A stretch of 64,000 nt of DNA from an uncultured Mediterraneibacter sp. GTDB taxonomy: Bacteria; Bacillota; Clostridia; Lachnospirales; Lachnospiraceae. Under the pieces are notes generated by a model. It was not told the origin of the DNA and did no database searches. It saw only the letters and a program-made list of their open reading frames with translations. This document shows positions 3,759 through 63,941 of the stretch, one piece after another (the stretch's first letter is position 1; every line of letters starts with the position of its first letter). The DNA lies in NCBI GenBank assembly GCA_934309345.1, contig CAKRDD010000018.1, positions 5,832 to 69,831 of the forward strand, written 5' to 3'. The translations under genes were made by a program, and so were the position numbers.

Positions 3759-4238
3759 TTATTTTGTCATTATTTTTTGTCTTCTTTTATTTATGATTAA
3801 AAAAAGATTTCTGTCTGTTACCCATTTCTTAATGCGTTCGATTTCTTCATCCATATTTGGCTCATTCTCTGGTTTCCAGTCCTCTCTCATGCTTTTCAGT
3901 TCTTCTTCCCAGTCCGCTATATCATCATCAAGATAGCTCGCTTCTTCCTCGTCTGCTTCTTCTGGGTGTTCTTCCAGATACTTCTTTTCTTCCTTAGCGG
4001 TTTCGATATTGTCCATTGCGTTCAGATAGTCCTCTGGGTCATATCCCCAACAAAGGAGATGATTCAGAAGTGTAGGCTTTGGGATCATTCCAAACCAACA
4101 ACGCTCAAACCACTGGTCGGCATAATCTCTTTCATCACTTCCGTTGGAGTAAGTACCGCCCACCAAATCTCCGACAAAATTCTCTATCAGCTCTCCGATT
4201 GTTTCAATTTCTTCCTGCTGTTCTTCCTGACAACTCAT
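3759..4238 (-). CDS. Hypothetical, strongly acidic protein (159 aa), paralog of 1..646
   Basis: By my count about 44 D/E versus about 18 K/R residues, with runs such as EEHPEEADEEEASYLDDDIADWEEE. It shares a conserved core with the 1..646 product. I recognise no known family. Confidence 0.7.
   Translation of the reverse strand: MSCQEEQQEEIETIGELIENFVGDLVGGTYSNGSDERDYADQWFERCWFGMIPKPTLLNHLLCWGYDPEDYLNAMDNIETAKEEKKYLEEHPEEADEEEASYLDDDIADWEEELKSMREDWKPENEPNMDEEIERIKKWVTDRNLFLIINKRRQKIMTK
4057..4199. repeat. Second copy of the 143-bp near-identical block (see 381..523)
   Basis: Manual alignment with 381..523. Confidence 0.8.
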
Positions 4239-4270: not shown

Positions 4271-4882
4271 CTATGCTTTAAAAAGATCATTTAATGACAT
4301 CTGCTCATACTGATATTCTTGTTCGACTTTTCTTTTCCCTTTTTTCCCACAAGCATTCTCTTTCTGAATGCAAATAATTTGCGCATTACTCAGATCACTC
4401 TCATACAACTTTTGTATATCTCTGATAGCCTGCTTACGTTTACCCTCGAATATTCGATGATTTAATCCCATATCTTGCTCTACTGATTTATACAATTCAC
4501 CTTTCACATACAGTCGATCTATAATATCATGTTCCTCCCCGATCAATGTTTGAAAGCATAGATATAATCTGTGAATTCCTTCAGCATGTATAGTAAGAAC
4601 ATGCATTTCAGCAGCTAATTGTTCTTCCTGCTCATTTACAAGCTTTTGGTATCTAAGGTATACATCTGCAAGATCTTTATGTGTTCCTCTTCCTCCACCT
4701 TCCTGGGACAAATCTATCTTTGGATAAGATGCCATTTCTATCGTTTGCTGTTGTACTTCATCTAATTTTTCCCGAATCTCAAGCACTTGTTTGTGTATCT
4801 GCTGGGTTAGTTCACTATGATGCCGAAGTACATCTTTAATTTTTTTACTATCCATTTTAAGATATCCGCCTTCTCCTGACAT
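4271..4882 (-). CDS. Putative transcription factor with a sigma-70 region-4-like / ArpU-like C-terminal HTH
   Basis: LIGEEHDIIDRLYVKGELYKSVEQDMGLNHRIFEGKRKQAIRDIQKLY fits the L..E..II..RY..G.S...IA..LG.S.RTV.R....A..KL pattern of region 4. Strong RBS aagggagggttcagATG. Confidence 0.55.
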   Translation of the reverse strand: MSGEGGYLKMDSKKIKDVLRHHSELTQQIHKQVLEIREKLDEVQQQTIEMASYPKIDLSQEGGGRGTHKDLADVYLRYQKLVNEQEEQLAAEMHVLTIHAEGIHRLYLCFQTLIGEEHDIIDRLYVKGELYKSVEQDMGLNHRIFEGKRKQAIRDIQKLYESDLSNAQIICIQKENACGKKGKRKVEQEYQYEQMSLNDLFKA

Positions 4883-5779: not shown

Positions 5780-5920
5780 GTAACTGTTCAGAGCCAACCT
5801 TCAAAATGCTACGCATTTTGAAGGTGTGGCGTATCCGCCAAATAAAATTTCAAAAACAGTCTTAAAAATGCAAGCATTTTACATCTTTTTTTGAAATTTT
5901 GCTTGGCTCTGAACAGTTAC
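5780..5920. mobile_element. MITE-like 141-bp element with perfect 18-bp terminal inverted repeats
   Basis: gtaactgttcagagccaa (5780-5797) and ttggctctgaacagttac (5903-5920). The flanks are tattttat (5772-5779) and cattttat (5921-5928), a 7/8 direct repeat. The interior is non-coding and full of nested hairpins. Confidence 0.55.
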
Positions 5921-5924
5921 CATT

Positions 5925-8900
5925 TTATTTAAAGTATTTTACACCTGACTCGAAAATCTTAAGATCCTGCTCTCCATAGATGTTGATAGCAACATGATCT
6001 CCACGTCTCTCTGAATGAGCCATCTTACCAAGAACACGTCCATCCGGGCTTGTGATACCTTCGATTGCACGGTAAGATCCATTCACATTCCACTCTTCGT
6101 TCATGCTGATATTTCCTTCCGGATCACAGTACTGTGTTGCCACCTGTCCGTTCGCGAACAGCTTATCAAGCCACTCTTCGCTTGCAACAAATCTTCCTTC
6201 ACCGTGGGATGCCGGGTTTGTGTAAACTCCGCCAAGCTGTGCACCCTGAAGCCATGGGGATTTGTTTGTAACAACCTTTGTATAAACCATCTTGGAGATA
6301 TGGCGTCCGATCGTATTGTATGTCAGTGTCGGAGCATCATCTGTCTGTCCAACGATTTTTCCGTATGGTACAAGTCCGAGCTTGATCAGGGCCTGGAATC
6401 CGTTACAGATACCAAGTGCAAGTCCGTCTCTCTCATTCAGAAGTTTTTCAACAGCTTCTTTGATCTTCGCATTCTGGAATGCAGTTGCAAAGAATTTAGC
6501 TGAACCATCCGGCTCATCACCGGCACTGAATCCACCTGGGAACATGATCATCTGAGCCTGTCCGATTGCCTTCTCAAACTCGTCTACTGATCCACGGATA
6601 TCTTCTGCATCAAGGTTACGGAATACTTTTGTAATAACCTTAGCACCTGCTCTCTCAAATGCACGGGCGCTGTCATACTCACAGTTTGTTCCAGGGAATA
6701 CCGGAATAAATACTGTTGGCTGTCCGATCTTATGGCTGCAAATATGAACATCGGATGTATTGAAGAGTTTCTCTTCAACCTTAGCATCAGAATCTGCCGC
6801 TGATTTTGTAGCAAATACTTTCTCAAGTGTTCCTGTCCATGCATCCTGTGCATCTGCAAGTGCAATCTTCACATCACCGTAAGCAAGTACAGGCTCTTCT
6901 GTTACTTCACCGATCTCTGTATAAGTGATCGCAAGTTCTCCAACCTTTCCGTCTTCAACCTCTGCGATAATATCACCAAATGCAGGAGCAAACAGATCTC
7001 TCTTATCTACATTGTGCTCTATCTTGGCACCCATGCGGTTACCGAATGCCATCTTGCTGACTGCTGCAGCAACTCCATGACGATCCAGTGCATATGCAGA
7101 GACGATTTTTCCGCTCTGTACATCTTCCATGAATTTACCGTACTGATCCATTACTGCATCGTAAACCGGAAGATCATTCTCGTCTCTTTCAATCTTGAGC
7201 CATACAAGTTTATTTCCCGCTTTCTTAAGTTCAGGTGTAATAATATCCTGCTCAAGAGCCATATCAACAGCAAAGGATACAAGTGTCGGAGGTACGTCGA
7301 TATCCTGGAATGTTCCTGACATACTGTCTTTTCCACCGATAGACGGAAGTCCGAAACCGATCTGCGCTGCATAAGCACCAAGAAGTGCTGCAAATGGCTG
7401 GCTCCATCTCTTCGGATCCTCTGTCATTCTGCGGAAATACTCCTGGAATGTGAAACGGATCTTTCTGTAATCTCCACCTGCTGCCACGATCTTGGCAACT
7501 GACTCTGTCACTGCATAAACAGCTCCGTGGTATGGGCTCCAGCTTGACAGATATGGATCAAATCCATAACTCATCATAGAAACACTATCTGTTGTTCCGT
7601 TCAGAACAGGAACTTTCGCTATCATTGCCTGTGTCTCTGTCATCTGGTATTTTCCGCCATGTGGCATGAATACGGAACCTGCTCCGATCGAACCGTCGAA
7701 CATCTCAACAAGTCCTTTCTGAGAGCATACATTGAGATCAGAGAGCATAGAAAGCCATGTTTCTTTTACATCTCCTACTTCTTTCTTTACAAAAAGGCTG
7801 TCCTTCTTAGAAGGAATCTCGACCTCAACATTTGTCTCCTGATGCGCACCGTTTGTATCAAGGAATGCACGAGAAAGATTTACGATCTCTTTTCCTCTCC
7901 ATACAAGTACAAGTCTTGGCTCTTCTGTTACTACTGCTGCAACTGTTGCCTCTAAGTTTTCCTCCTTAGCATATCCCATGAATTCATCTACATCTTTCGG
8001 ATCTACAACAACTGCCATTCTTTCCTGAGACTCAGAGATTGCGATCTCTGTTCCGTCAAGTCCTGCATATTTTTTCGGTACTTTATCAAGTTCAACGCGA
8101 AGTCCGTCTGCAAGTTCTCCGATTGCTACTGAGACACCGCCCGCACCGAAGTCATTACATTTCTTGATCAGATGGCTGACTTCTTCTCTGCGGAATAATC
8201 TCTGGATCTTACGCTCTGTCGGTGCATTTCCTTTCTGAACTTCTGCGCCGCAAGTCTCGATAGACTCTTCTGTATGAACCTTAGAGGAACCTGTTGCTCC
8301 ACCACAGCCGTCACGGCCTGTACGTCCACCAAGAAGGATGATGATATCTCCCGGATCGGAATTTTCACGGATAACAGCACGTCTTGGAGCAGCTCCAAGT
8401 ACAGCTCCGATCTCCATACGTTTTGCTACGTAATCCGGATGATAAATCTCTTTTACAAGTCCTGTAGCCAGACCGATCTGGTTACCATAGGAACTGTATC
8501 CGTGTGCAGCTTCGCGAACAAGTTTCTTCTGAGGAAGTTTTCCTTTCAAAGTCTCATTTGCTGATACAGTCGGATCAGCAGCACCTGTCACACGCATTGC
8601 CTGATATACATAAGTACGTCCTGACAGTGGGTCACGGATAGCTCCTCCAAGACATGTTGCAGCTCCACCGAAAGGTTCGATCTCTGTCGGGTGGTTATGT
8701 GTCTCATTCTTGAAGTTGATCAGCCACTCTTCTTCTACTCCGTCAACCTTGATCGGAACTACAATACTACATGCATTGATCTCATCAGACTCTTCCTGAT
8801 CAGCAAGCTTTCCTTCCTTTTTCAGGCGGCGCATAGCCATCAGTGCAAGATCCATAAGGCAGACAAATTTATCTTCTCTTCCCTTGAAGATCTCGCTGTG

Positions 8901-14863: not shown

Positions 14864-14994
14864 AAAATCCGCCCCCTTTCATTTTTGAACACACTGATTA
14901 TCCTAGTCAATAAGTATCCGTTTTCTTTCCTACTTTCAATTCTGTATTTCTGAGTGGATTCCTTCTCTTGAAATGAGCCCCCCTCTTTGAAAGT

Positions 14995-15200
14995 GTAAGC
15001 GAGAACAGTTCTGCTGTTGCCATGGGCACATGTAAGGCAGGAGCGTTCCGAATACACTTTGTTCAGTATGTTAGTAAGAGCCAGACAGGCACCACACACG
15101 GTAACTGTTCTGGCTCTTACGTTACATACTTTCAAAGGGATGAGGTAGAGCGAGCCGGTGCTCGTGGTAATAGCAGGACTGATCTTGCGACCATTCTGTA
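14995..15200 (+). ncRNA. Copy A of an unclassified structured-RNA-like repeat
   Basis: Nearly identical to 42593-42800. The closing helix 15001-15029 / 15158-15188 contains four G-U pairs that work only for a plus-strand transcript. The extended hairpin is 15056-15136. The invariant unpaired segments are 15028-15055 and 15137-15157. There is no ATG, RBS or conserved frame. Confidence 0.5.
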
Positions 15201-15240
15201 AAGTGCTCATTCCCCATACGAATCCCCTCAAAAATACAAA

Positions 15241-16869
15241 TTACTCACACTCGCGAATCTTCTTTCTAAGCGGCAATACCATCGCCGGAGATACAGACAA
15301 CTCATCCAGTCCCATCTTCAGGAACTCTTCTGTCAGTTCAAGGTCTGCGCCAAGCTCTCCACAGATTCCGATCCATTTTCCTTCTGCATGTGCATTATCA
15401 GCTGCCATCTTGATCATAGCAAGCACTGCCGGGTGATGTGGATCATAGAACTCATCCAGCGCAAGGTTCTGACGGTCAATCGCCAGTGTATACTGTGTCA
15501 GGTCATTTGTTCCGACACTGAAGAAATCTACTTCTTTCGCAAGCTCACGGCTCATCATAACAGATGCCGGAGTCTCGATCATGATACCAAGTTCTACGTC
15601 TTCCTTAAATGGAAGTCCTTCTTCTCTCAGCTCTGCCTTCACTTCTTCGATGATCTCTTTGATCTTACGAACTTCTTTTACAGAAATGATCATCGGGAAC
15701 ATAATGGAAAGGTTTCCATATACGGATGCACGGTAAAGTGCACGAAGCTGAGTCTTGAAGATCTCCGGTCTTGTCAGGCAGATACGGATTGCTCTGTATC
15801 CGAGTGCCGGGTTCTCTTCTTTTGCAAGATTGAAGTAATCAACCTGCTTGTCTGCTCCGATATCAAGTGTACGGATGATAACTTTCTTTCCGGCCATGCT
15901 TTCTACAACCTGTTTGTAAGCTGCAAACTGCTGGTCTTCTGTCGGATATGTACTGTTCTCAAGATAAAGGAACTCACTTCTGAACAGACCTACTCCGCCT
16001 GCATCATTCTTAAGAACTGCACCAAGATCAGATACATTACCAATGTTCGCATAAACATTGATCTTCTGTCCGCTCTTTGTTACATTCTCTTTTCCTTTGA
16101 GCTGGTTGAGAAGTTCTTTCTGCTCAAGGTCTTTCGCACGCTTCTCCTGCATCTTTGCAAGTGTCTCTTCATCCGGATCCACATAGAGTGTTCCCGTAAA
16201 TCCATCAATGATAGCCATCTCTCCGTCATATTTCGGGTTGAGAGCTTCTCCCATTCCGATCACAGCCGGAATGTTCATTGTTCTTGCAAGGATTGCTGTA
16301 TGAGAGTTGGAAGAACCATACATTGTAGCAAATCCGAGTACTTTCTCTTTATCAAGCTGTACTGTCTCACTTGGTGCAAGATCATCTGCCGCAACAATAC
16401 AAGGTTCTGTCATCTCACGTGTTCCATTGCTCACTCCGCAGAGAATATCAAGCACACGCTCGGAAACATCCTTCACGTCCGCTGCACGTCCCTGCATATA
16501 TGCATCATCCATAGATGCAAACATCTGTGCAAAGTTATCAGCTGTTGTTGAAACAGCATACTCTGCATTCACATTCTGTGTACGGATAATTCCTTCAATA
16601 GATTCCAGATAATCCAGATCATCAAGCATCATCTGGTGAATCTCAAAGATCATGGCGTTGGCCTCACCTACATCTTCAATGGCTTTGTCGTAGAGAGCTT
16701 TCAGCTGGTCGATTGCTGTGTTCTTAGCCTCTTCGAATCTCTTCCATTCTGCATCCACATCATCTACATGCGTTCTTCTGATCACCTTTTCGTTTCTCTT
16801 ATAGAACATCAGTTTTCCAATGGATACCCCACCGAATACGCTTTTCCCTTCAATCGTTATCATATACAC
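15241..16869 (-). CDS. ptsI: Phosphoenolpyruvate-protein phosphotransferase (PTS enzyme I)
   Basis: GSSNSHTAILARTMNIPAV contains the phospho-histidine. FFSVGTNDLTQY marks the PEP-utilising domain. Confidence 0.96.
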   Translation of the reverse strand: MYMITIEGKSVFGGVSIGKLMFYKRNEKVIRRTHVDDVDAEWKRFEEAKNTAIDQLKALYDKAIEDVGEANAMIFEIHQMMLDDLDYLESIEGIIRTQNVNAEYAVSTTADNFAQMFASMDDAYMQGRAADVKDVSERVLDILCGVSNGTREMTEPCIVAADDLAPSETVQLDKEKVLGFATMYGSSNSHTAILARTMNIPAVIGMGEALNPKYDGEMAIIDGFTGTLYVDPDEETLAKMQEKRAKDLEQKELLNQLKGKENVTKSGQKINVYANIGNVSDLGAVLKNDAGGVGLFRSEFLYLENSTYPTEDQQFAAYKQVVESMAGKKVIIRTLDIGADKQVDYFNLAKEENPALGYRAIRICLTRPEIFKTQLRALYRASVYGNLSIMFPMIISVKEVRKIKEIIEEVKAELREEGLPFKEDVELGIMIETPASVMMSRELAKEVDFFSVGTNDLTQYTLAIDRQNLALDEFYDPHHPAVLAMIKMAADNAHAEGKWIGICGELGADLELTEEFLKMGLDELSVSPAMVLPLRKKIRECE

Positions 16870-32050: not shown

Positions 32051-33391
32051 TTAGATAAATTTCTGACGGATGATCTGCTGAACAAGCTCTTCGTTTGTTT
32101 TTGTACGGGAAAACATGTTCAAAAGGTTGTCCACTGCCTCTTCTGATTTCATGCCGTTCATTGCTTTTCTCATGATATAAACCGCATCCTGTTCTTCCTT
32201 TGTAAGAAGCAGATCTTCTCTTCTTGTTCCTGATTTCGGAATATCAATCGCCGGGAAAACTCTTTTCTCCTGAAGCTTTCTGTCAAGCATCAGTTCCATG
32301 TTACCTGTTCCCTTGAATTCTTCATAAACAACATCATCCATCTTGCTTCCTGTATCAACCAGTGCTGTTGCAAGAATCGTAAGGCTTCCACCTTCTCTCA
32401 TATTTCTTGCTGCTCCGAAGAAACGCTTTGGACTGTAAAGTGCTGCCGGATCAAGACCACCGGAAAGTGTTCTTCCTGATGGTGGAACGATCAGGTTATA
32501 TGCTCTTGAAAGTCTTGTAATGCTGTCAAGGAGAATCATAACGTCTTTTCCGTGCTCTACCAGACGTTTTGCCCTTGAGATAACCATTTCTGATACTCGC
32601 TTGTGATGCTCCGGAAGTTCATCAAATGTAGAATGGATCACTTCTACATTCGGACCTTCGATTGCTTCACGGATATCAGTTACTTCTTCCGGACGTTCAT
32701 CGATCAACAGAATCAGAAGATGCATATTCGGTTCTGTCTTCTGTACAGACAGTGCAACTTCTTTTAATAATGTAGTTTTTCCTGCCTTCGGTGGAGATAC
32801 GATCATACCTCTCTGTCCTTTTCCAATAGGAGAAACAAGATCCACGATACGCATAGCTGTTGTACAACCCGGATTCTCCAGACGAATTCTCTGATTCGGG
32901 AAAATCGGAGTCAAATCTTCAAAGTTCTTTCTCTTCATTGCCTCTGCCGGACGCAGTCCATTGATTGTAGACACATAAAGAAGTGCGCTGAACTTTTCTC
33001 CCTGCGTCTTAACTCTTGTATTTCCTGTCAGGATATCTCCTGTTTTAAGCCCGAATCTGCGAATCTGTGAAGGAGCAACATAGACATCTCCATCCCCCGG
33101 AAGATAATTATCAGAACGAATGAATCCATATCCATCCTGAAGTACCTCAAGGATTCCGTTTGCTGTAAAACCACTGTCCAGCTGTTCAATATCTGTCTCT
33201 TCTTTTTTCTCTTCTTTTACTTCTTCTCTCGCTTCTTCTGCTGCCTCTTTCTGCTCTTCCTGCTCATCCAGTTCAAGCATTGCATCGATCAGATCGCCTT
33301 TCTTTAATGTAGAAACACCTCTCATCTTTCTTGCTTTTGCAAGTTCTTTCAATGTTGCCAGCGGCAATGATTCATATTTTTCTCGTGTCAT
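32051..33391 (-). CDS. rho: Transcription termination factor Rho
   Basis: The Rho N-terminal domain [22 protein letters not shown] is followed by an acidic insert. Then come the RNA-binding OB region GFIR and Walker [17 protein letters not shown]. The start is set at MTREKYE (33391). Confidence 0.95.
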
Positions 33392-33655
33392 ATTCTTTTC
33401 CTTTCTTTTCAGGTAAGTCTGTTTTTTCAATCCGCTTCACATGTGCCCTTTTCACATACCGGATTATTCATTCATACTTCGGGAATATAAGTCTGATTCG
33501 ACTTTAATGGAAATTTGCTTTAAATATGGTGTTATTATACAGTATATTTTTCTAAAAAGAAAGAACTTTTTGAACTTTTCTCTGTTTTCCTGTACTTGCG
33601 TGTTTCCTTTTTCAGTGGTATCATTAATTCAATCAAATCAGAGAGGTATAAAATC

Positions 33656-34804
33656 ATGACAAACAATGAAAAAGCTTTAAAAATGCATGAAGAATGGAAT
33701 GGTAAGATAGAGACAACTGCCAAAGCGCATGTCAACTCAAGAGAAGATCTTGCCATCGCTTATACTCCGGGTGTTGCTGAACCTTGTAAGGTGATTGCAC
33801 AGGATCCGGAAGCCGCATATAAATACACTATGAAAGCCAATACAGTTGCCGTTGTATCTGACGGAAGCGCTGTTCTTGGTCTTGGAAACATCGGTGCGCT
33901 TGCTGCTATGCCGGTTATGGAGGGAAAGGCAGTCCTGTTCAAGGAATTCGGTGGTGTCAACGCAGTTCCGATCTGTCTGGATACACAGGACACAGAAGAG
34001 ATCATTAAATCTGTAGTCAACATTGCACCGGCTTTCGGTGGAATCAATCTGGAAGATATTTCAGCTCCTCGTTGTTTTGAAATCGAAACACGTCTGAAAG
34101 AACTCCTGAACATTCCAGTTTTCCATGATGACCAGCACGGAACAGCTATCGTTGTCCTCGCCGGAATCATCAATGCCCTGAAAGTAACAGGAAAGAAGAA
34201 AGAAGATTGCCGTGTTGTAGTAAACGGAGCCGGATCTGCCGGAGTTGCTATCACAAAGCTGCTTCTCACTTATGGTTTCCCGCATATTACAATGTGTGAC
34301 ATCAACGGAATCATTTCCAAGAACTCTCCGAACCTGAACTGGATGCAGCAGCAGATGACTGAAGTTACAAATCTGGAAGGACGCACCGGAACACTTGCCG
34401 ATGCATTAAAAGGTGCTGATATTTTCGTTGGTGTTTCTGCTCCGAATATTGTTTCTAAAGAGATGGTTGCTTCTATGAATAAGGATGCAATTCTGTTCGC
34501 CATGGCGAACCCTGTACCGGAGATCATGCCTGACCTTGCAAAAGAAGCAGGTGCCAAAGTTGTCGGAACTGGACGCTCTGACTTCCCGAACCAGGTAAAC
34601 AATGTTGTTGCATTCCCTGGTATTTTCAAAGGTGCATTAGAAGGACGTGCCACACAGATTACAGAAGAAATGAAACTTGCCGCTGCCAATGCAATCGCAG
34701 GTCTTGTTCCGGATGAAGAATTGAATGAGAACAACATTCTTCCGGAAGCCTTTGATCCTCGTGTAGCAGACACAGTAAGCAAAGCAATCAAGGATTTAAT
34801 CTAA
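33656..34804 (+). CDS. NAD(P)-dependent malic enzyme (short form, malate oxidative decarboxylase)
   Basis: YTPGVAEPC, FHDDQHGTAIV, and NGAGSAGVA (Rossmann fold). The start is set at MTNNEKAL (33656). Confidence 0.93.
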   Translation: MTNNEKALKMHEEWNGKIETTAKAHVNSREDLAIAYTPGVAEPCKVIAQDPEAAYKYTMKANTVAVVSDGSAVLGLGNIGALAAMPVMEGKAVLFKEFGGVNAVPICLDTQDTEEIIKSVVNIAPAFGGINLEDISAPRCFEIETRLKELLNIPVFHDDQHGTAIVVLAGIINALKVTGKKKEDCRVVVNGAGSAGVAITKLLLTYGFPHITMCDINGIISKNSPNLNWMQQQMTEVTNLEGRTGTLADALKGADIFVGVSAPNIVSKEMVASMNKDAILFAMANPVPEIMPDLAKEAGAKVVGTGRSDFPNQVNNVVAFPGIFKGALEGRATQITEEMKLAAANAIAGLVPDEELNENNILPEAFDPRVADTVSKAIKDLI

Positions 34805-40691: not shown

Positions 40692-42182
40692 ATGCTTTAC
40701 GATGCAATCAAAAAATTAGTACAATATGGAATCAATACCGGAATCACTCCGGAATCTGAACGGATTTATACAACTAATCTTCTGCTGGATCTGTTCCACG
40801 AAGATAACTATGAAGACGTTGACTGTAACCTGGACAATCTCGTTCTGGAAGATATTCTTGCAGAACTTTTAGATATCGCCGCAGAGCGCGGAATCATTGA
40901 AAACAGCATCGGCTACCGTGATCTGTTTGACACAAAGCTGATGAATACACTGATGCCACGCCCATCACAGATCCAGCAGACTTTCTGGGAAAAATACAAA
41001 GTTTCTCCGGAGACAGCAACTGATTATTATTACAAATTAAGCCAGGACAGTGATTATATCCGCAGATACCGCATTGCCAGAGACCGCAAATGGACGGTTG
41101 ACACAGAATATGGCACTTTGGATATTACGATCAATCTTTCCAAACCAGAGAAAGATCCAAAAGCGATTGCAGCAGCAGGAAAAGCAAAATCCTCTTCCTA
41201 TCCAAAATGTCAGCTTTGCATGGAAAATGAGGGCTATGCAGGACGCCTTGATCATCCGGCTCGTGAGAACCACAGAATCATCCCGATCACAATTCAGGAT
41301 AATCCTTGGGGATTCCAGTACTCCCCTTATGTATACTACAACGAGCACTGTATCGTATTTAACGGACAGCATGTTCCAATGAAGATCGATCGTAATGCAT
41401 TTGAAAAGCTTTTTGATTTCATCAAACTTTTCCCACACTACTTCCTTGGATCCAATGCAGACCTTCCGATCGTTGGCGGTTCTATCTTAAGCCATGATCA
41501 TTTCCAGGGCGGAAATTATACTTTCGCAATGGCTAAAGCTCCGATCATTGAGCACTTTACTGTAAAAGGTTATGAAGATGTAACAGCCGGTATTGTAAAA
41601 TGGCCACTCTCTGTTATCCGTCTCCAGAGCAAAGAAGTAAAACCTCTGATTGATCTGGCTGAGCACATTTTAAACACATGGAGATCCTATACAGATGAAG
41701 ATGCTTTCATCTTCGCTGAGACAGACGACACGCCGCACAATACGATCACACCAATTGCAAGAAAGCGTGGAGACCTTTACGAACTTGACCTGACATTAAG
41801 AAACAATATTACAACAGAAGAACACCCACTTGGTGTTTATCATCCACACGCGAAGCTGCACCATATCAAGAAAGAAAACATCGGTCTTATTGAAGTAATG
41901 GGACTTGCTGTTCTTCCTGCACGACTGAAAGGTGAGATGGAACTTCTGAGAGATTACATCCTGACAGGAAAAGATATCCGCAGCAATGAGCAGATTGCAA
42001 AACACGCTGACTGGGTAGATGAATTCCTTCCAAATTATTCTTCCATCACAGAAGATAATGTTGAAGAGATCCTTCAGCAGGAAGTCGGAAAAGTATTCTG
42101 CGAAGTACTCGAAGACGCCGGGGTTTATAAATGTGATGAAAAAGGACTGGAGGCATTCCATCGTTTTGTAGGGGTGTTGTAA
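40692..42182 (+). CDS. galT: UDP-glucose--hexose-1-phosphate uridylyltransferase (type 2, ~500 aa)
   Basis: Length and motifs are those of the Gram-positive GalT type, including GGSILSHDHFQGG. It lies directly downstream of galK. Confidence 0.94.
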   Translation: MLYDAIKKLVQYGINTGITPESERIYTTNLLLDLFHEDNYEDVDCNLDNLVLEDILAELLDIAAERGIIENSIGYRDLFDTKLMNTLMPRPSQIQQTFWEKYKVSPETATDYYYKLSQDSDYIRRYRIARDRKWTVDTEYGTLDITINLSKPEKDPKAIAAAGKAKSSSYPKCQLCMENEGYAGRLDHPARENHRIIPITIQDNPWGFQYSPYVYYNEHCIVFNGQHVPMKIDRNAFEKLFDFIKLFPHYFLGSNADLPIVGGSILSHDHFQGGNYTFAMAKAPIIEHFTVKGYEDVTAGIVKWPLSVIRLQSKEVKPLIDLAEHILNTWRSYTDEDAFIFAETDDTPHNTITPIARKRGDLYELDLTLRNNITTEEHPLGVYHPHAKLHHIKKENIGLIEVMGLAVLPARLKGEMELLRDYILTGKDIRSNEQIAKHADWVDEFLPNYSSITEDNVEEILQQEVGKVFCEVLEDAGVYKCDEKGLEAFHRFVGVL

Positions 42183-42237
42183 TTTGTTGAACTTGGATTC
42201 ATTATCACTCAAATAAGTACTTTTTAGTAAAACAGAC

Positions 42238-42450
42238 GTGAGGAAGCCACTGTATTGCATCGGACACCGGCCCGCTTTACCTCATCCCTTTGACAATCTG
42301 TAACGAAAAAGCCAGAGCACTCACCGTGTGTGATTCGTGTCTGGCTTTTTCTAACAGATTCTGCAAAGTGTATTCGGAACGCTCCTGCCTTAAATGTGTC
42401 CTCAACAATACAGTGGCTCCCTCACTCGGCTTTTCAAATGAGTAAGTGCT
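42238..42450 (-). ncRNA. Copy C (diverged, inverted) of the structured-RNA-like repeat
   Basis: On the minus strand the two unpaired cores are conserved (acatttaaggcaggagcgttccgaatacacttt and tcaaagggatgaggtaaagcgggccggtg). The closing helix has an unrelated sequence but is still fully complementary (plus-strand 42238-42267 with 42396-42425). Confidence 0.5.
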
Positions 42451-42498
42451 ATTCCAAATGAAATGAATCCAGAAAACAAAATATGAACTTAAAGTGTT

Positions 42499-42544
42499 AA
42501 GGAAATGGGAACGCAATCAACTACGATGGTCTTCCCATTTCCTT
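42499..42544. repeat. Central 13-bp-stem palindrome between the inverted repeat copies C and B
   Basis: aaggaaatgggaa (42499-42511) pairs with ttcccatttcctt (42532-42544). A second inverted pair flanks it: aatccagaaaacaaa (42466-42480) and tttgttttctggatt (42543-42557). Confidence 0.7.
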
Positions 42545-42592
42545 TGTTTTCTGGATTTGTCTGATTGGAATTAAATATCTCGTTTGGAATAT

Positions 42593-42800
42593 GTAAGCAA
42601 GGACAGTCCTGCTGTTGCCACGAGCACATGTAAGGCAGGAGCGTTCCGAATACACTTTGTTCAGTATGTTAGTAAGAGCCAAAACAGGCACCACACACGG
42701 TAACTGTTCTGGCTCTTACGTTACATACTTTCAAAGGGATGAGGTAAAGCGGGCCGGTGCTCGTGGTAATAGCAGGGCTGGCCTTGCGACACCATTCTAT
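42593..42800 (+). ncRNA. Copy B of the structured-RNA-like repeat
   Basis: Differs from copy A at about a dozen positions by manual alignment. The closing helix is 42601-42629 / 42758-42783. It ends 18 nt before the convergent ilvA stop. Confidence 0.5.
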
Positions 42801-42817
42801 AGACTGTTTAATACCAA

Positions 42818-44032
42818 TTAGTACAGTTTCGCACTGATCAGTTTTGGTCTGAATCCTGCTTTATCGAGTGTATCGAGAATCTTTTTCTTATGATCTGTTC
42901 CGAATGCTTCCATTGTGATACGAAGCTCTACTGCTGCGTTTCTGTTTGTGCTTACAAACTGGTTATGTTCCAGTTTAATGATATTACCCTGTACGTCTGC
43001 GACTGTCTGTGCCACGCGTGCGAGTTCACCCGGCTTATCCGGAAGGAGTACGGATACGGAGAAGATACGGTCTCTCTGAATCAGTCCGTGCTGTACGATA
43101 GAGGACATTGTGATTACATCCATATTTCCACCACTTAATACACAGACTACTTTCTTTCCTTTGATGTCCATCTGCTTTAATGCAGCTACGGAAAGAAGTC
43201 CTGAATTTTCTACGATCATCTTATGATTCTCTACCATATCAAGAAATGCACCAATCAATTCATCATCTTCTACAAGAAGTACTTCATCTACATTTTCTTT
43301 CACATATGGGAGGATCTTATCTCCAACTTCTTTTACAGCTGTTCCATCTGCGATTGTATTCGCTGAAGGAAGTTCTACCGGCTCTCCTGCTTTCAGGGCT
43401 GCTGTCATGCTGGCTGCCTCTGACGGCTCTACACCAACTACTTTGATCTTTGGATTGAGCATCTTGGCAAGTGTGGAAACACCTGTGATCAGTCCGCCGC
43501 CACCGATCGGTGCAAGGATATAATCTACAGTCGGGAGTTCCTGAACAATCTCCATTGCGATTGTTCCCTGACCCGTAGCGACATCAAGGTCATTGAATGG
43601 ATGAACAAATGTATATCCGTTCTCTTCTGCAAGTTTGCACGCATGTGCGTAAGCATCATCATAAACATCTCCGTGAAGTACTACATCTGCTCCAAAGCTT
43701 TTTGTACGGTTTACTTTGATCAGCGGAGTAACTGTAGGCATAACGATCGTAGCTTTGCATCCAAACTGTTTTGCTGCAAATGCAACGCCCTGTGCATGAT
43801 TTCCTGCTGATGCTGTGATCAGTCCACGGCTTCTTTCTTCGTCTGTCAGTGTGCTGATCTTGTAGTATGCACCACGGATCTTATAAGCTCCTGTGTGCTG
43901 CATATTCTCCGGTTTTAAATAGACCTTTGCTCCTGTCTGTGCACTTAAGTATTCACTGTAAATAAGTTTTGTAGGATTTGTTACCTTTTTTACCAGTTCG
44001 CTAGCTTCTTCAAATTTCTCTAATGTCATCAT
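42818..44032 (-). CDS. ilvA: Threonine ammonia-lyase (threonine dehydratase), ~400-aa form with one C-terminal ACT-like domain
   Basis: HTGAYKIRGAY contains the PLP lysine. Also SAGNHAQGVA and GGGGLI. Confidence 0.92.
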   Translation of the reverse strand: MMTLEKFEEASELVKKVTNPTKLIYSEYLSAQTGAKVYLKPENMQHTGAYKIRGAYYKISTLTDEERSRGLITASAGNHAQGVAFAAKQFGCKATIVMPTVTPLIKVNRTKSFGADVVLHGDVYDDAYAHACKLAEENGYTFVHPFNDLDVATGQGTIAMEIVQELPTVDYILAPIGGGGLITGVSTLAKMLNPKIKVVGVEPSEAASMTAALKAGEPVELPSANTIADGTAVKEVGDKILPYVKENVDEVLLVEDDELIGAFLDMVENHKMIVENSGLLSVAALKQMDIKGKKVVCVLSGGNMDVITMSSIVQHGLIQRDRIFSVSVLLPDKPGELARVAQTVADVQGNIIKLEHNQFVSTNRNAAVELRITMEAFGTDHKKKILDTLDKAGFRPKLISAKLY

Positions 44033-63858: not shown

Positions 63859-63941
63859 TGCCGCTGGCCGGACTCGAACCGGCACGGCTACTAACCGCTT
63901 GATTTTGAGTCAAGTGCGTCTGCCAATTCCGCCACAGCGGC
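63859..63941 (-). tRNA. tRNA-Leu (anticodon CAA), type II with a long variable arm, no encoded CCA
   Basis: The minus strand reads gccgctgtggcggaattggcagacgcacttgactCAAaatcaagcggttagtagccgtgccggttcgagtccggccagcggca. The acceptor stem is GCCGCTG/CAGCGGC, the anticodon stem is cttga/tcaag around loop ctCAAaa, and the T-arm is gccgg-ttcgagt-ccggc. Confidence 0.93.

Follow-up and report, generated by a model that had tools for sequence, protein, structure and literature searches.

Several families of MITE-like repeats that form long RNA hairpins have been described in bacteria: Correia/NEMIS (Neisseria), ERIC/RU-1 (enterobacterial), BOX, RUP and SPRITE (pneumococcal), and bcr1 (Bacillus cereus). 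The Mediterraneibacter repeats described here resemble this group in being short, non-coding, multicopy and intergenic, in having terminal inverted repeats and lying at gene ends, in the stable hairpins predicted to form when they are transcribed, and in the clustering and nesting of their copies. Unlike that group, they have no sequence similarity in Rfam, plasmids or phages, no detected target-site duplication, a clear strand asymmetry of pairing, and an asymmetric internal core, rather than termini, as their most conserved part. Full-text literature searches gave no report of termini 0–1 nt from stop codons in those families, which are not known to have this property. SPRITE has been likened to a Rho-independent terminator (review PMC10969869).

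REP/BIME sequences and REPINs share with the present family an extragenic palindromic form, a frequent position between convergent genes and near stop codons, single-stranded hairpins, proposed roles in mRNA 3′-end protection or termination, and within-genome lineages. They are mobilized by RAYT transposases, and no RAYT-like gene was seen in the loci of our family. REPs measure 20–40 nt and REPINs about 100 nt, with a conserved GTAG or CGTC head (PMC3733652). The present rods, in contrast, are ~300 nt long, have an invariant central core and occur in Firmicutes; on size and sequence we rejected membership in REP/REPIN.

Integron attC sites are 57–141 nt long, carry RYYYAAC/GTTRRRY at their boundaries and stand in co-oriented cassette arrays beside intI/attI. 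Like them, the family consists of imperfect inverted repeats that start right after a stop codon and keep structure rather than sequence; attC functions as a folded single strand in which unpaired bases set strand choice, a feature that the family would share if read as ssDNA. The family's terminal repeat also contains GTTGAAC/GTTCAAC, which fits the attC GTTRRRY/RYYYAAC consensus and could do so by chance; unlike in attC, this GTTSAAC motif lies ~11 nt inside the end and not at the boundary. Membership was rejected on the ~300-nt length, the internal motif and the housekeeping neighbors in mixed orientation, and no cassette array or integrase was found beside copies at the family loci. PATEs, which derive from IS200/IS605, are likewise non-autonomous, lack a target duplication and form strand-specific hairpins with important mismatches. 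They have separate sub-terminal hairpins on the left and right and integrate 3′ to a fixed sequence of four or five nucleotides, whereas our family forms a single end-to-end hairpin with true terminal inverted repeats and variable flanks, and no TnpA or TnpB gene was found near its copies.

Three rods in one window

The window (the whole 64,000-nt stretch of DNA that was analyzed) matches [Ruminococcus] faecis and holds three copies of the repeat, A and B on the plus strand and C on the minus strand. The part of copy C flagged in the preliminary description (42238..42425, minus strand), with its closing helix, conserved core and inner hairpin, belongs to one rod. This fold had implicitly been read as a stand-alone RNA; it proved to be only the middle of a ~290-nt rod ending at the galT stop codon. 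The full copy C rod (42183..42470, minus strand, ~288 nt) is closed by an outer helix, GGAUUC (42470-42465).../...GAAUCCAAGUUCAACAAA (42200-42183), and its 3′ end abuts that stop codon (42180-42182). The outer terminal repeat of copy C is also conserved in other strains (L086, L092), and the 291 nt from 42180 to 42470 fold at −121.2 kcal/mol in the sense vs −99.4 kcal/mol in the antisense direction. The corresponding part of copy A (15011-15176, plus strand) is the center of a full rod at 14937..15243 (plus strand), the 3′ end of which, ...ATACAAATTA, contains the complement of the ptsI stop codon (15241-15243); the presence of arms at this locus is polymorphic between strains. Copy B (42609-42775, plus strand) lies within a full rod at 42561..42820 (plus strand) ending in ...ACCAATTA, which contains the complement of the stop codon of a PALP/ACT (IlvA-like) gene (42818-42820). 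The outermost terminal-repeat segment is absent from the window's copy B and retained in strains L082 and L092. Each of the three copies forms a single long rod when folded, with minimum free energies of −101.6 (A; z = −9.7), −107.1 (B; z = −11.1) and −100.1 kcal/mol (C; z = −10.5), equalled by no shuffle in any copy.

Copies C and B stand head to head around a middle hairpin module (42471..42560) with arms at 42450-42480 and 42543-42573, and C, the middle hairpin and B together take up all 635 nt that separate galT from the ilvA-like gene convergent with it. Other strains carry a different middle module with TTTATCGACTAAG, which is common to the elements of chicken-gut species.

The near-identity of the cores in A, B and C, reported in the preliminary description, was borne out. 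The 27-mer AAGGCAGGAGCGTTCCGAATACACTTT occurs exactly three times, at 15034-15060 (plus), 42365-42391 (minus) and 42632-42658 (plus), with none expected from shuffles; the 29-mer TCAAAGGGATGAGGTAAAGCGGGCCGGTG is exact at 42265-42293 (minus) and 42731-42759 (plus) and has two mismatches at 15132-15160 (plus). The cores had also been called unpaired, and here only the invariance of their sequence stands, as variant lineage V2 shows them to be partly base-paired. In the 5′ core of copy C (42365..42397, minus strand), the family-invariant GGAGCGUUCCGA is followed by AUACAC, which pairs with the 3′ core; in the 3′ core (42265..42293, minus strand), UGAGG-NNN-AGCGGG is invariant and GGGAU pairs with the 5′ core. 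CCGA opposite GAGG in the cores may form tandem G·A pairs, flanked by C-G pairs. The V2 core is a near-continuous helix, and the flanking nucleotides pair on both sides in V1 and V2, so that there is no 3-nt bulge where a kink-turn needs one. Resemblances of the core to the hammerhead, kink-turn and T-arm, compared by hand, were dropped because element order or a required bulge did not fit.

Copies A and B share the closing helix CUGCUGUUGCCA.../...UGGUAAUAGCAG, unlike copy C, whose 30-nt arms, GUGAGGGAGCCACUGUAUUGUUGAGGACAC on the 5′ side (42396..42425, minus strand) and GUGUCCGAUGCAAUACAGUGGCUUCCUCAC on the 3′ side (42238..42267, minus strand), are 83% complementary. That the copy C helix differs was thus correctly noted, but its sequence is not unrelated, as had been stated: the helices align at ~50% identity. 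The ACUGUAU/AUACAGU block of copy C recurs in the arms of another subfamily in other species, and C-type arms are present at other loci, there with further compensatory changes (L164). Copy C is thus no case of one helix replaced wholesale; the dispersed repeat has diverged into several lineages, and C belongs to one of them. The preliminary description had allowed for a chimeric origin of copy C; chimeras with non-cognate arms do exist (L083), which makes inter-copy recombination part of the family's dynamics.

Dispersal of the family and its placement at stop codons

We place copy C, as a diverged paralog, in an apparently undescribed family of Mediterraneibacter repeats that are dispersed, do not code for protein and form hairpins; we regard this description of the element as very probably correct. 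The unit is an imperfect palindrome, or rod, of ~290–330 nt that terminal inverted repeats delimit on either side; these read TTGTTGAACTTGGATTC...GAATCCAAGTTCAACAA in M. faecis and AATTCGTGTTTGTTGAA...TTCAACAAACACGAATT in the related chicken-gut species. Rods usually occur in composites, where two of them face outward on either side of a middle hairpin. A genome scan yielded 81 loci, all in Mediterraneibacter, Lachnoclostridium or Clostridiales. Copies number up to ~25 per genome (Ca. M. faecavium); one MAG contains at least 24, and two more contain 13 apiece. Many copies lie at contig ends, and assemblies frequently break at copies. Similarity between copies stops ~105–118 nt 3′ of the core and extends up to ~546 nt 5′ of it. 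With non-coding units of ~300–770 bp, many copies per genome, and terminal inverted repeats at both ends in M. faecis and the chicken-gut species, the family has the size, copy number and termini of MITEs. No reading frame is open across copies. The neighbors are unrelated housekeeping genes (ptsI, galT, ilvA-like) in both orientations, and the neighborhoods of the copies gave no consistent gene association suggestive of a cis-regulator.

Strains differ in what they carry at a given locus, where we found different lineages, inversions, chimeras and arm-less alleles. The galT/ilvA-like composite, for example, is present in all M. faecis strains, with differing lineages and orientations. We found no clean empty site: all-against-all BLAST of the flanks was noisy, and the ptsI locus provided none because its short-allele junctions are not simple deletions. 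Elements with both ends defined were flanked by no consistent direct repeat (TA, TAA/TTA or TTAA), and the occasional TA at both element ends is accounted for by the stop codons. Across ~1 Mb of family loci, no terminal-repeat pair enclosed more than 700 bp without a core, as an autonomous partner would, and no transposase or other candidate enzyme gene adjoined any copy. At the gathering threshold, Rfam models matched only a single tRNA in the window; searches of the B/C region (E-value to 10) and of a full composite from another species (to 1) returned spurious miRNA-precursor matches only. Neither BLAST nor pattern searches of plasmid, phage and viral collections matched the family. Full-text literature searches and a review (PMC10969869) yielded no account of the family or of MITEs that abut stop codons.

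Element ends typically lie 0–1 nt from stop codons. When the repeat was defined more strictly, 71 of 107 distinct ends lay between −2 and +12 nt from an inward-reading gene's stop codon, with 5.5% expected. For distances of −3 to +12 nt from a stop, the count was 49 of 66 for distinct 3′ ends and 29 of 48 for outer left ends, with a mode of 0. We rejected the ideas that the element supplies the stop codon or that its insertion truncated the genes, because TAA, TGA and TAG all occur next to elements, PtsI aligns with its Pfam model up to the final residues, and relatives without the element have the same C-terminus and stop codon in the IlvA-like gene. Precision of 0–1 nt is not explained by selection alone, and a targeting step is needed. 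To our knowledge, no known transposition mechanism explains placement at stop codons without target duplication. One reading, which we consider improbable, is that a structured mobile element homes to the nucleotide after stops by way of gene ends rather than DNA sequence, leaving the native C-terminus untouched and duplicating no target; the invariant mismatched core of the folded single strand, RNA or ssDNA, would be its catalytic or recognition center. If true, it would amount to a gene-end-specific integration system without a known bacterial counterpart.

Covariation, strand asymmetry and competing explanations

Copies B and C could be compared at 56 pairs in common alignment columns. Forty pairs are identical, five differ on one side, each time creating or removing a G·U pair, and 11 differ on both sides and still pair; the simultaneous change in both arms of the inner hairpin, noted in the preliminary description, is among these compensatory changes. 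The same description had proposed comparing the copies with their homologs. An alignment of 75 copies showed double changes at 35 of the 53 predicted pairs and 97.2% of cells paired, counts that overstate the number of independent events since the copies are related by descent and many double changes were inherited by whole subfamilies. Paired cells fell to 88.1% in shuffled and 33–48% in partner-slid controls; the observed covariation values were reached by 0 of 500 shuffles, and the partner-slid controls collapsed. Covariation is seen at several depths (V1 vs V2, B-type vs C-type, and C vs L164), and within the core the pairs 30-118, 32-116 and 34-115 covary with variant V2. An alternative pairing, CAUGGAG/CUCCAUG, found in one subfamily, was dropped as it is not conserved in the M. 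faecis copies.

The two strands are not equivalent. The flagged strand folds 16.5 kcal/mol better than its complement, the same strand is favored in 85 of 86 copies (V1 rods), and V2 rods favor their own sense strand in 18 of 18; minority cells contain 129 G·U against 31 A·C. G·T pairs are also tolerated in ssDNA, so the excess of G·U does not prove RNA. Together, covariation and strand asymmetry support, as judged from the sequences, selection on the fold of a single strand, which may be RNA or ssDNA. The preliminary description's proposal of selection on secondary structure is thereby supported: helices are kept by compensatory change and short internal segments are invariant. GGAGCGUUCCGA and UGAGG-NNN-AGCGGG never vary across the family, and the asymmetric core they form part of is the most conserved region across species whose stems have little sequence in common.

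As an explanation of these observations, we tentatively propose a family of mobile hairpin repeats that also functions as a gene-end module, a combination for which we see not quite an even prospect. The next most credible explanation, though an unlikely one, is a mobile ssDNA element whose one-strand fold serves excision and integration by a structure-recognizing enzyme, for example an HUH/Y1 transposase like those of IS200/IS605 and REP/RAYT or a tyrosine recombinase like that acting on integron attC, with the core as recognition site and any RNA role incidental. The multicopy, dispersed family with defined ends, its strand-specific folding, and the different lineages and orientations at one locus between strains would all follow; the apparent lack of target-site duplication is as seen with ssDNA transposons and site-specific recombination, and the retention of structure over stem sequence and the ends beside stops recall what is known of attC sites. 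Consensus scans of four regions likewise found no sigma-70-like promoter above chance in or beside the rods, a result that also counts against the gene-end module. Yet the ~1 Mb of loci contained no candidate enzyme gene beside any copy, the copies lie among housekeeping genes in both orientations and not in cassette arrays, and a ~300-nt rod far exceeds attC or REP hairpins. The conserved core, moreover, is central, whereas IS200/IS605 enzymes bind sub-terminally, and orientation in the window is independent of replication direction: A and B (plus) are opposite to C (minus) under uniform GC skew, on which ground a replication-strand bias was also rejected.

Another account is that of a selfish palindrome or MITE in the DNA, its fold under no selection, which would have arisen as a recent inverted repeat and been homogenized at the DNA level by template switching within quasi-palindromes or gene conversion between copies, the core being its least-diverged part. 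This account fits the terminal inverted repeats, the many copies, the breaks in assemblies and the occurrence of recombinant or chimeric copies. Template switching in quasi-palindromes can change both arms together, and the double changes are often subfamily-wide, leaving fewer independent events than the cell counts suggest. However, a purely double-stranded palindrome does not predict the strand asymmetry or the predominance of G·U over A·C, covariation recurs at several depths, and homogenization should erase asymmetric mismatches, yet GGAGCGUUCCGA opposite UGAGG-NNN-AGCGGG is the most conserved part; we consider this account hardly likely. A family of stand-alone structured ncRNA genes (riboswitch, ribozyme or protein-sponge RNA) in three paralogous copies would show the invariant internal loops, covarying helices and very strong folding z-scores that are classical for functional RNA, but it is very improbable given a fold with no flanking promoter or own terminator (consensus scans of the four regions did no better than chance for the latter) that extends outward into terminal inverted repeats abutting stop codons, a copy number reaching ~25 in one genome, with copies that lie in either orientation beside unrelated genes, variation of one locus by inversion, chimeras and arm loss between strains, and the lack of an Rfam match or of a gene association pointing to a cis-regulator.

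A possible gene-end module

In the combined explanation that we prefer, the element would spread as DNA, non-autonomously, through some mobilizing enzyme and without target duplication, and would persist because its transcript serves as a gene-end module. The apical hairpin could act as a terminator, possibly bidirectional, or as a 3′-end stabilizer, and the full rod would carry a putative protein-binding internal loop built on tandem G·A pairs. The apical hairpin of copy C, GAAAAAGCC...GGCUUUUUC (42305..42351, minus strand), combines an A-run, a GC-containing stem and a U-run (A5-GCC...GGC-U5, also in L162 and L164) and so looks like an intrinsic terminator that could work in both directions. 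In copies A and B the hairpin has no flanking A-run and U-run (AAGAGCC/GGCUCUU, with CUCUU instead). In short alleles L162 and L171 the arms are gone and what is left, immediately downstream of the ptsI stop, is precisely the apical hairpin; this homologous hairpin folds at −30.7 kcal/mol (z = −7.1). A consensus terminator scan did not call the apical hairpin, because its U-run pairs with the A-run and its loop exceeds 8 nt, so we can only infer a terminator function. The outer 3′ end of the rod has no U-run and is thus not a canonical intrinsic terminator, and no other terminator-like site was found in the 635-nt convergent spacer.

The favored strand is antisense to the mRNA of the abutting gene, and the simplest reading as a 3′-UTR stabilizer therefore predicts the wrong strand. 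The rod would instead form on RNA from polymerases arriving from the element's far side and, as an insulator, would keep convergent antisense read-through out of the abutting gene. Such an insulator would account for the favored strand always running toward the adjacent stop codon; it presumes read-through transcripts. We regard this functional mechanism, as gene-end module and insulator, as possible but doubtful.

These repeats interrupt the assembly of metagenomes, and they drive rearrangements at the level of strains (inversions, chimeras and changed neighbors); both effects are relevant to strain tracking in gut metagenomics. Their placement at stop codons without target duplication makes how a mobile element finds gene ends a directly testable question. 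If the proposed explanation is true, common human and chicken gut bacteria carry MITE-like repeats that evolve like functional RNA, and these would provide a natural system for hairpin repeats that shape mRNA 3′ ends in Firmicutes and for studying how convergent genes may be shielded from antisense read-through.

Copies, anatomy and distribution of the repeat

Core strings of 27 and 29 nt match exactly three sites in the window, exactly or with 2 mismatches, where shuffled sequence is expected to yield none; the cores of copies A, B and C are thus near identical, as first described. Read from both strands, from closing helix to closing helix, copy A occupies 15011-15176 (+), copy B 42609-42775 (+) and copy C 42238-42425 (-). 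Each folds into one long rod, an end-to-end imperfect palindrome (MFE -100 to -107 kcal/mol, z -9.7 to -11.1). The closing arms of copy C (42396-42425 and 42238-42267) are mutually complementary, but their sequence is not the CUGCUGUUGCCA.../...UGGUAAUAGCAG used by A and B. The preliminary description went too far in calling this helix unrelated sequence: in alignment, about half of it matches the B-type helix, and it has an ACUGUAU/AUACAGU block in common with the arms of another subfamily. Among 56 pairs in columns common to B and C, 40 are identical, 5 differ on one side, each change making or removing a G.U pair, and 11 differ on both sides with pairing kept, including the inner-hairpin changes that had been reported to alter both arms at once. 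The three-copy observation is real and far beyond chance. Copy C has cognate arms and is not a chimera like the one at L083 (L-numbers denote other loci or contigs compared with the window), where a B-type 5′ arm faces a C-type-like 3′ arm. Additional compensatory changes separate C from L164, a copy with C-type arms at a different locus.

When one genome per species was searched with a gapped core pattern, 81 loci came back, every one from Mediterraneibacter, Lachnoclostridium or Clostridiales. Ca. M. faecavium accounts for about 24 of them and two further species for 13 each; many of the loci lie at contig ends. The window itself was identified as [Ruminococcus] faecis via L007. The helix originally drawn does not mark the limit of similarity between copies, which reaches ~105-118 nt past the 3′ core and as far as ~546 nt in the 5′ direction. 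Long copies, once aligned, reveal terminal inverted repeats (AATTCGTGTTTGTTGAA...TTCAACAAACACGAATT; equivalent ends in M. faecis, TTGTTGAACTTGGATTC...GAATCCAAGTTCAACAA), a second rod-shaped module and a middle hairpin. Copy C therefore forms only the middle of a 288-nt rod (42183-42470, minus strand). The convergent galT and ilvA-like genes are 635 nt apart, and C, the middle hairpin and B take up all of this spacer as a composite of two outward-facing rods. The neighbours are housekeeping genes: ptsI and nfeD/SPFH for A, and galK-galT, the PALP/ACT (IlvA-like) gene, ftsY and smc for B and C. No open reading frame is kept across copies, Rfam holds no family for the element at curated or permissive thresholds, and plasmid, phage and viral-contig collections gave no match to it.

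The middle hairpin between C and B (window 42450-42573) differs between strains. The window carries a GGAAAUGGGAA.../...UUCCCAUUUCC hairpin inside a conserved CCAGAAAACAAA/UUUGUUUUCUGG stem; in its place, a module marked by the motif TTT(A/G)TCGACTAAG is present in the chicken-gut species and in other strains of M. faecis (L084/L092, about 4480-4600; L024, about 4280-4350), and a remnant of this module (ACTTATTGACTAGG) lies beside copy A at about 14895-14910. Module 1, a second and unrelated rod-shaped module of ~430 nt with its own inverted ends (AAATTCGTGTTTGTCGGGGAG.../...CTCCCCGGCAATCACGAAGTTT), occurs at L024 (3915-4330) and equivalently in other Ca. M. faecavium-type loci; module and rod occur together in composites of ~770 bp, and the module gave only spurious miRNA-like matches in Rfam. 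Within the terminal repeat of every copy (e.g. L024, about 4640-4660), ~11 nt inside the element end, lies GTTGAAC/GTTCAAC; its agreement with the integron core-site consensus GTTRRRY/RYYYAAC may well be a coincidence. Elsewhere in the window, the only Rfam gathering-level match (59.6 bits) is a tRNA-Leu gene with anticodon CAA and a long variable arm (63859-63941, minus strand). The 31-nt inverted repeat at 5837-5907 (9-nt gap, 81% complementary), just downstream of a 1251-aa ORF ending at 5925, is probably a terminator of the ordinary kind. Paired inverted repeats of 34 nt (32902-32935 and 33555-33588, 71% complementary, 619 nt apart) flank the region between ORFs 32051-33430 (-) and 33596-34804 (+).

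Support for selection on the fold, and the conserved core

Across 75 distinct copies, two-side changes occur in 35 of the 53 pairs predicted by RNAalifold. Paired cells amount to 97.2%, versus 88.1% in shuffles and 33-48% with partners slid, and 0 of 500 shuffles equalled the observed values; the covariation score is 0.335, versus 0.04-0.08 for slid structures. This signal is carried by the outer and inner helices, the predicted pairs in the invariant core being uninformative. In 85 of 86 copies the strand folded in the preliminary description gives the more stable structure, by 16.5 kcal/mol, with 5.8 G.U pairs versus 2.6 on the complement; minority cells in helices are G.U in 129 cases and A.C in 31. 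Replication-direction bias was rejected as the cause, since element orientation does not follow replication direction, and deamination linked to transcription, acting on the non-template strand of the abutting gene, would be expected to give the opposite bias. Because a purely double-stranded palindrome does not predict strand-specific constraint, these data support selection on a single-stranded form, RNA or ssDNA, of the folded strand, and the original proposal of selection on secondary structure is thus partly supported.

The cores had been drawn as simply unpaired, but their positions switch as pairs in V2, a second core lineage (the cores of A, B and C being V1) of which a sequence-profile search of the collected loci found at least 17 copies. 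From V1 to V2, GAAUACAC becomes GAAAAGCA and GGGAU becomes UCUUU; in A2, the multiple alignment of copies, pairs 30-118 (U-A to A-U), 32-116 (C-G to G-C) and 34-115 (C-G to A-U) switch together. On this pairing the core becomes an almost uninterrupted helix that has a one-nucleotide bulge and a likely tandem G.A (CCGA opposite GAGG). Because the switch represents one lineage event, support for the pairing is suggestive rather than statistical. The truly invariant segments are GGAGCGUUCCGA and UGAGG-NNN-AGCGGG, and the invariant loop is probably a protein site.

Stop-codon placement and strain-level turnover

Element ends abut stop codons. Copy A ends in ...ATACAAA followed by the TTA of the ptsI stop (15241-15243), copy B in ...ACCAA before that of the ilvA-like stop (42818-42820) and copy C in ...CAACAAA before that of the galT stop (42182-42180). 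After de-duplication, an inward-reading ORF of at least 100 codons had its stop within -3 to +12 nt of 49 of 66 rod 3′ ends (mode at 0) and 29 of 48 outer left ends; under a stricter repeat definition the same held for 71 of 107 ends, whereas only 5.5% of intergenic positions in the window qualify. TAA, TGA and TAG all occur. The element neither supplies the stop nor truncates genes, because the IlvA-like C-terminus and stop are the same in relatives without it and PtsI is full length. Consistent target duplication was not seen at element ends, and selection alone seems too imprecise for such placement. The closest relative without the element (L094, 89% IlvA-like identity) has TAATTGTTGTAAGG right after the stop (about 4212-4235), resembling the start of the terminal repeat TAATTGGTGT...TTTGTTGAA; this may reflect chance, a target preference or a footprint.

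The element turns over quickly by recombination. At the galT/ilvA-like site, a composite is present in every M. faecis-like metagenome contig (98-99% IlvA-like identity), but its version varies: on the B side the outer repeat is fuller in L082 and L092, and L083 and L086 have the composite reversed, with different sub-terminal sequence. At the ptsI-nfeD site, ten contigs encode an identical NfeD protein; seven carry A-type alleles, one, L164, combines C-like arms with a different apical hairpin, and two (L162, L171) lack arms and have only the L164-type apical hairpin (AAAAAGCCGAAACAGG...CUGUUUCGGCUUUUUC) directly past the stop, with junctions that are not clean deletions. This hairpin (-30.7 kcal/mol, z = -7.1) resembles a bidirectional intrinsic terminator; a simple terminator scan did not call it.

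In L083 (about 1407-2130, compared with window 42183-42817) the right-hand neighbour gene is not galT; its end (TTACAGTCTCTTCGC...) also lies against a different copy in JCM 15917 (L017), which suggests that copies have recombined and rearranged the genome. Many contigs at the ilvA-like site terminate 90-165 nt past the stop. The many metagenome and MAG contigs that stop inside or just past the element include L087, L088, L090, L097, L103, L106, L114 and others, as well as L010, L022, L025, L036 and L053, and some have the core 10-20 nt from the contig end. The family is a recurrent assembly breakpoint.

Relation to known repeats and proposed role

The element is a non-coding repeat, dispersed in genomes and enclosed by inverted repeats, whose hairpin has covarying helices, an invariant core and a favoured strand. 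In its way of working it is like REP elements and the hairpin-forming MITE-like repeats of other bacteria, such as Correia, ERIC, BOX/RUP/SPRITE and bcr1 (review PMC10969869). It has the terminal repeats, size, non-coding status and copy number of a MITE but lacks target duplication, and ~1 Mb of loci around copies contained no parent IS. Identity with an attC site, a REP or any Rfam family was rejected. Relative to what a limited literature search found described, the element stands out by its asymmetric, unchanging core among covarying helices, by its strand asymmetry and by its placement at stop codons.

The main rival explanation, which we regard as rather unlikely, is that the fold is needed on single-stranded DNA for mobilisation, as in IS200/IS605, REP-RAYT or attC systems; it fits both the missing target duplication and the strand specificity, but ~1 Mb of loci around copies yielded no enzyme candidate, and the element's size and context do not fit. 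We favour a model in which the element spreads as DNA via a non-duplicating mechanism and would persist, tolerated or favoured, through a transcript that serves as a gene-end module. The weak points of this gene-end reading are that consensus scans of four regions found no promoter for the element, that the rod end lacks a U-run and that copies A and B lack an A-run/U-run. In a composite, each of the two rods folds better on its own outward strand (85 of 86 V1 copies, 18 of 18 V2 copies). As a gene-end module, the apical hairpin would terminate or stabilise transcripts, and the full rod would form on transcripts arriving from the far side, where it may shield the abutting gene from convergent read-through.
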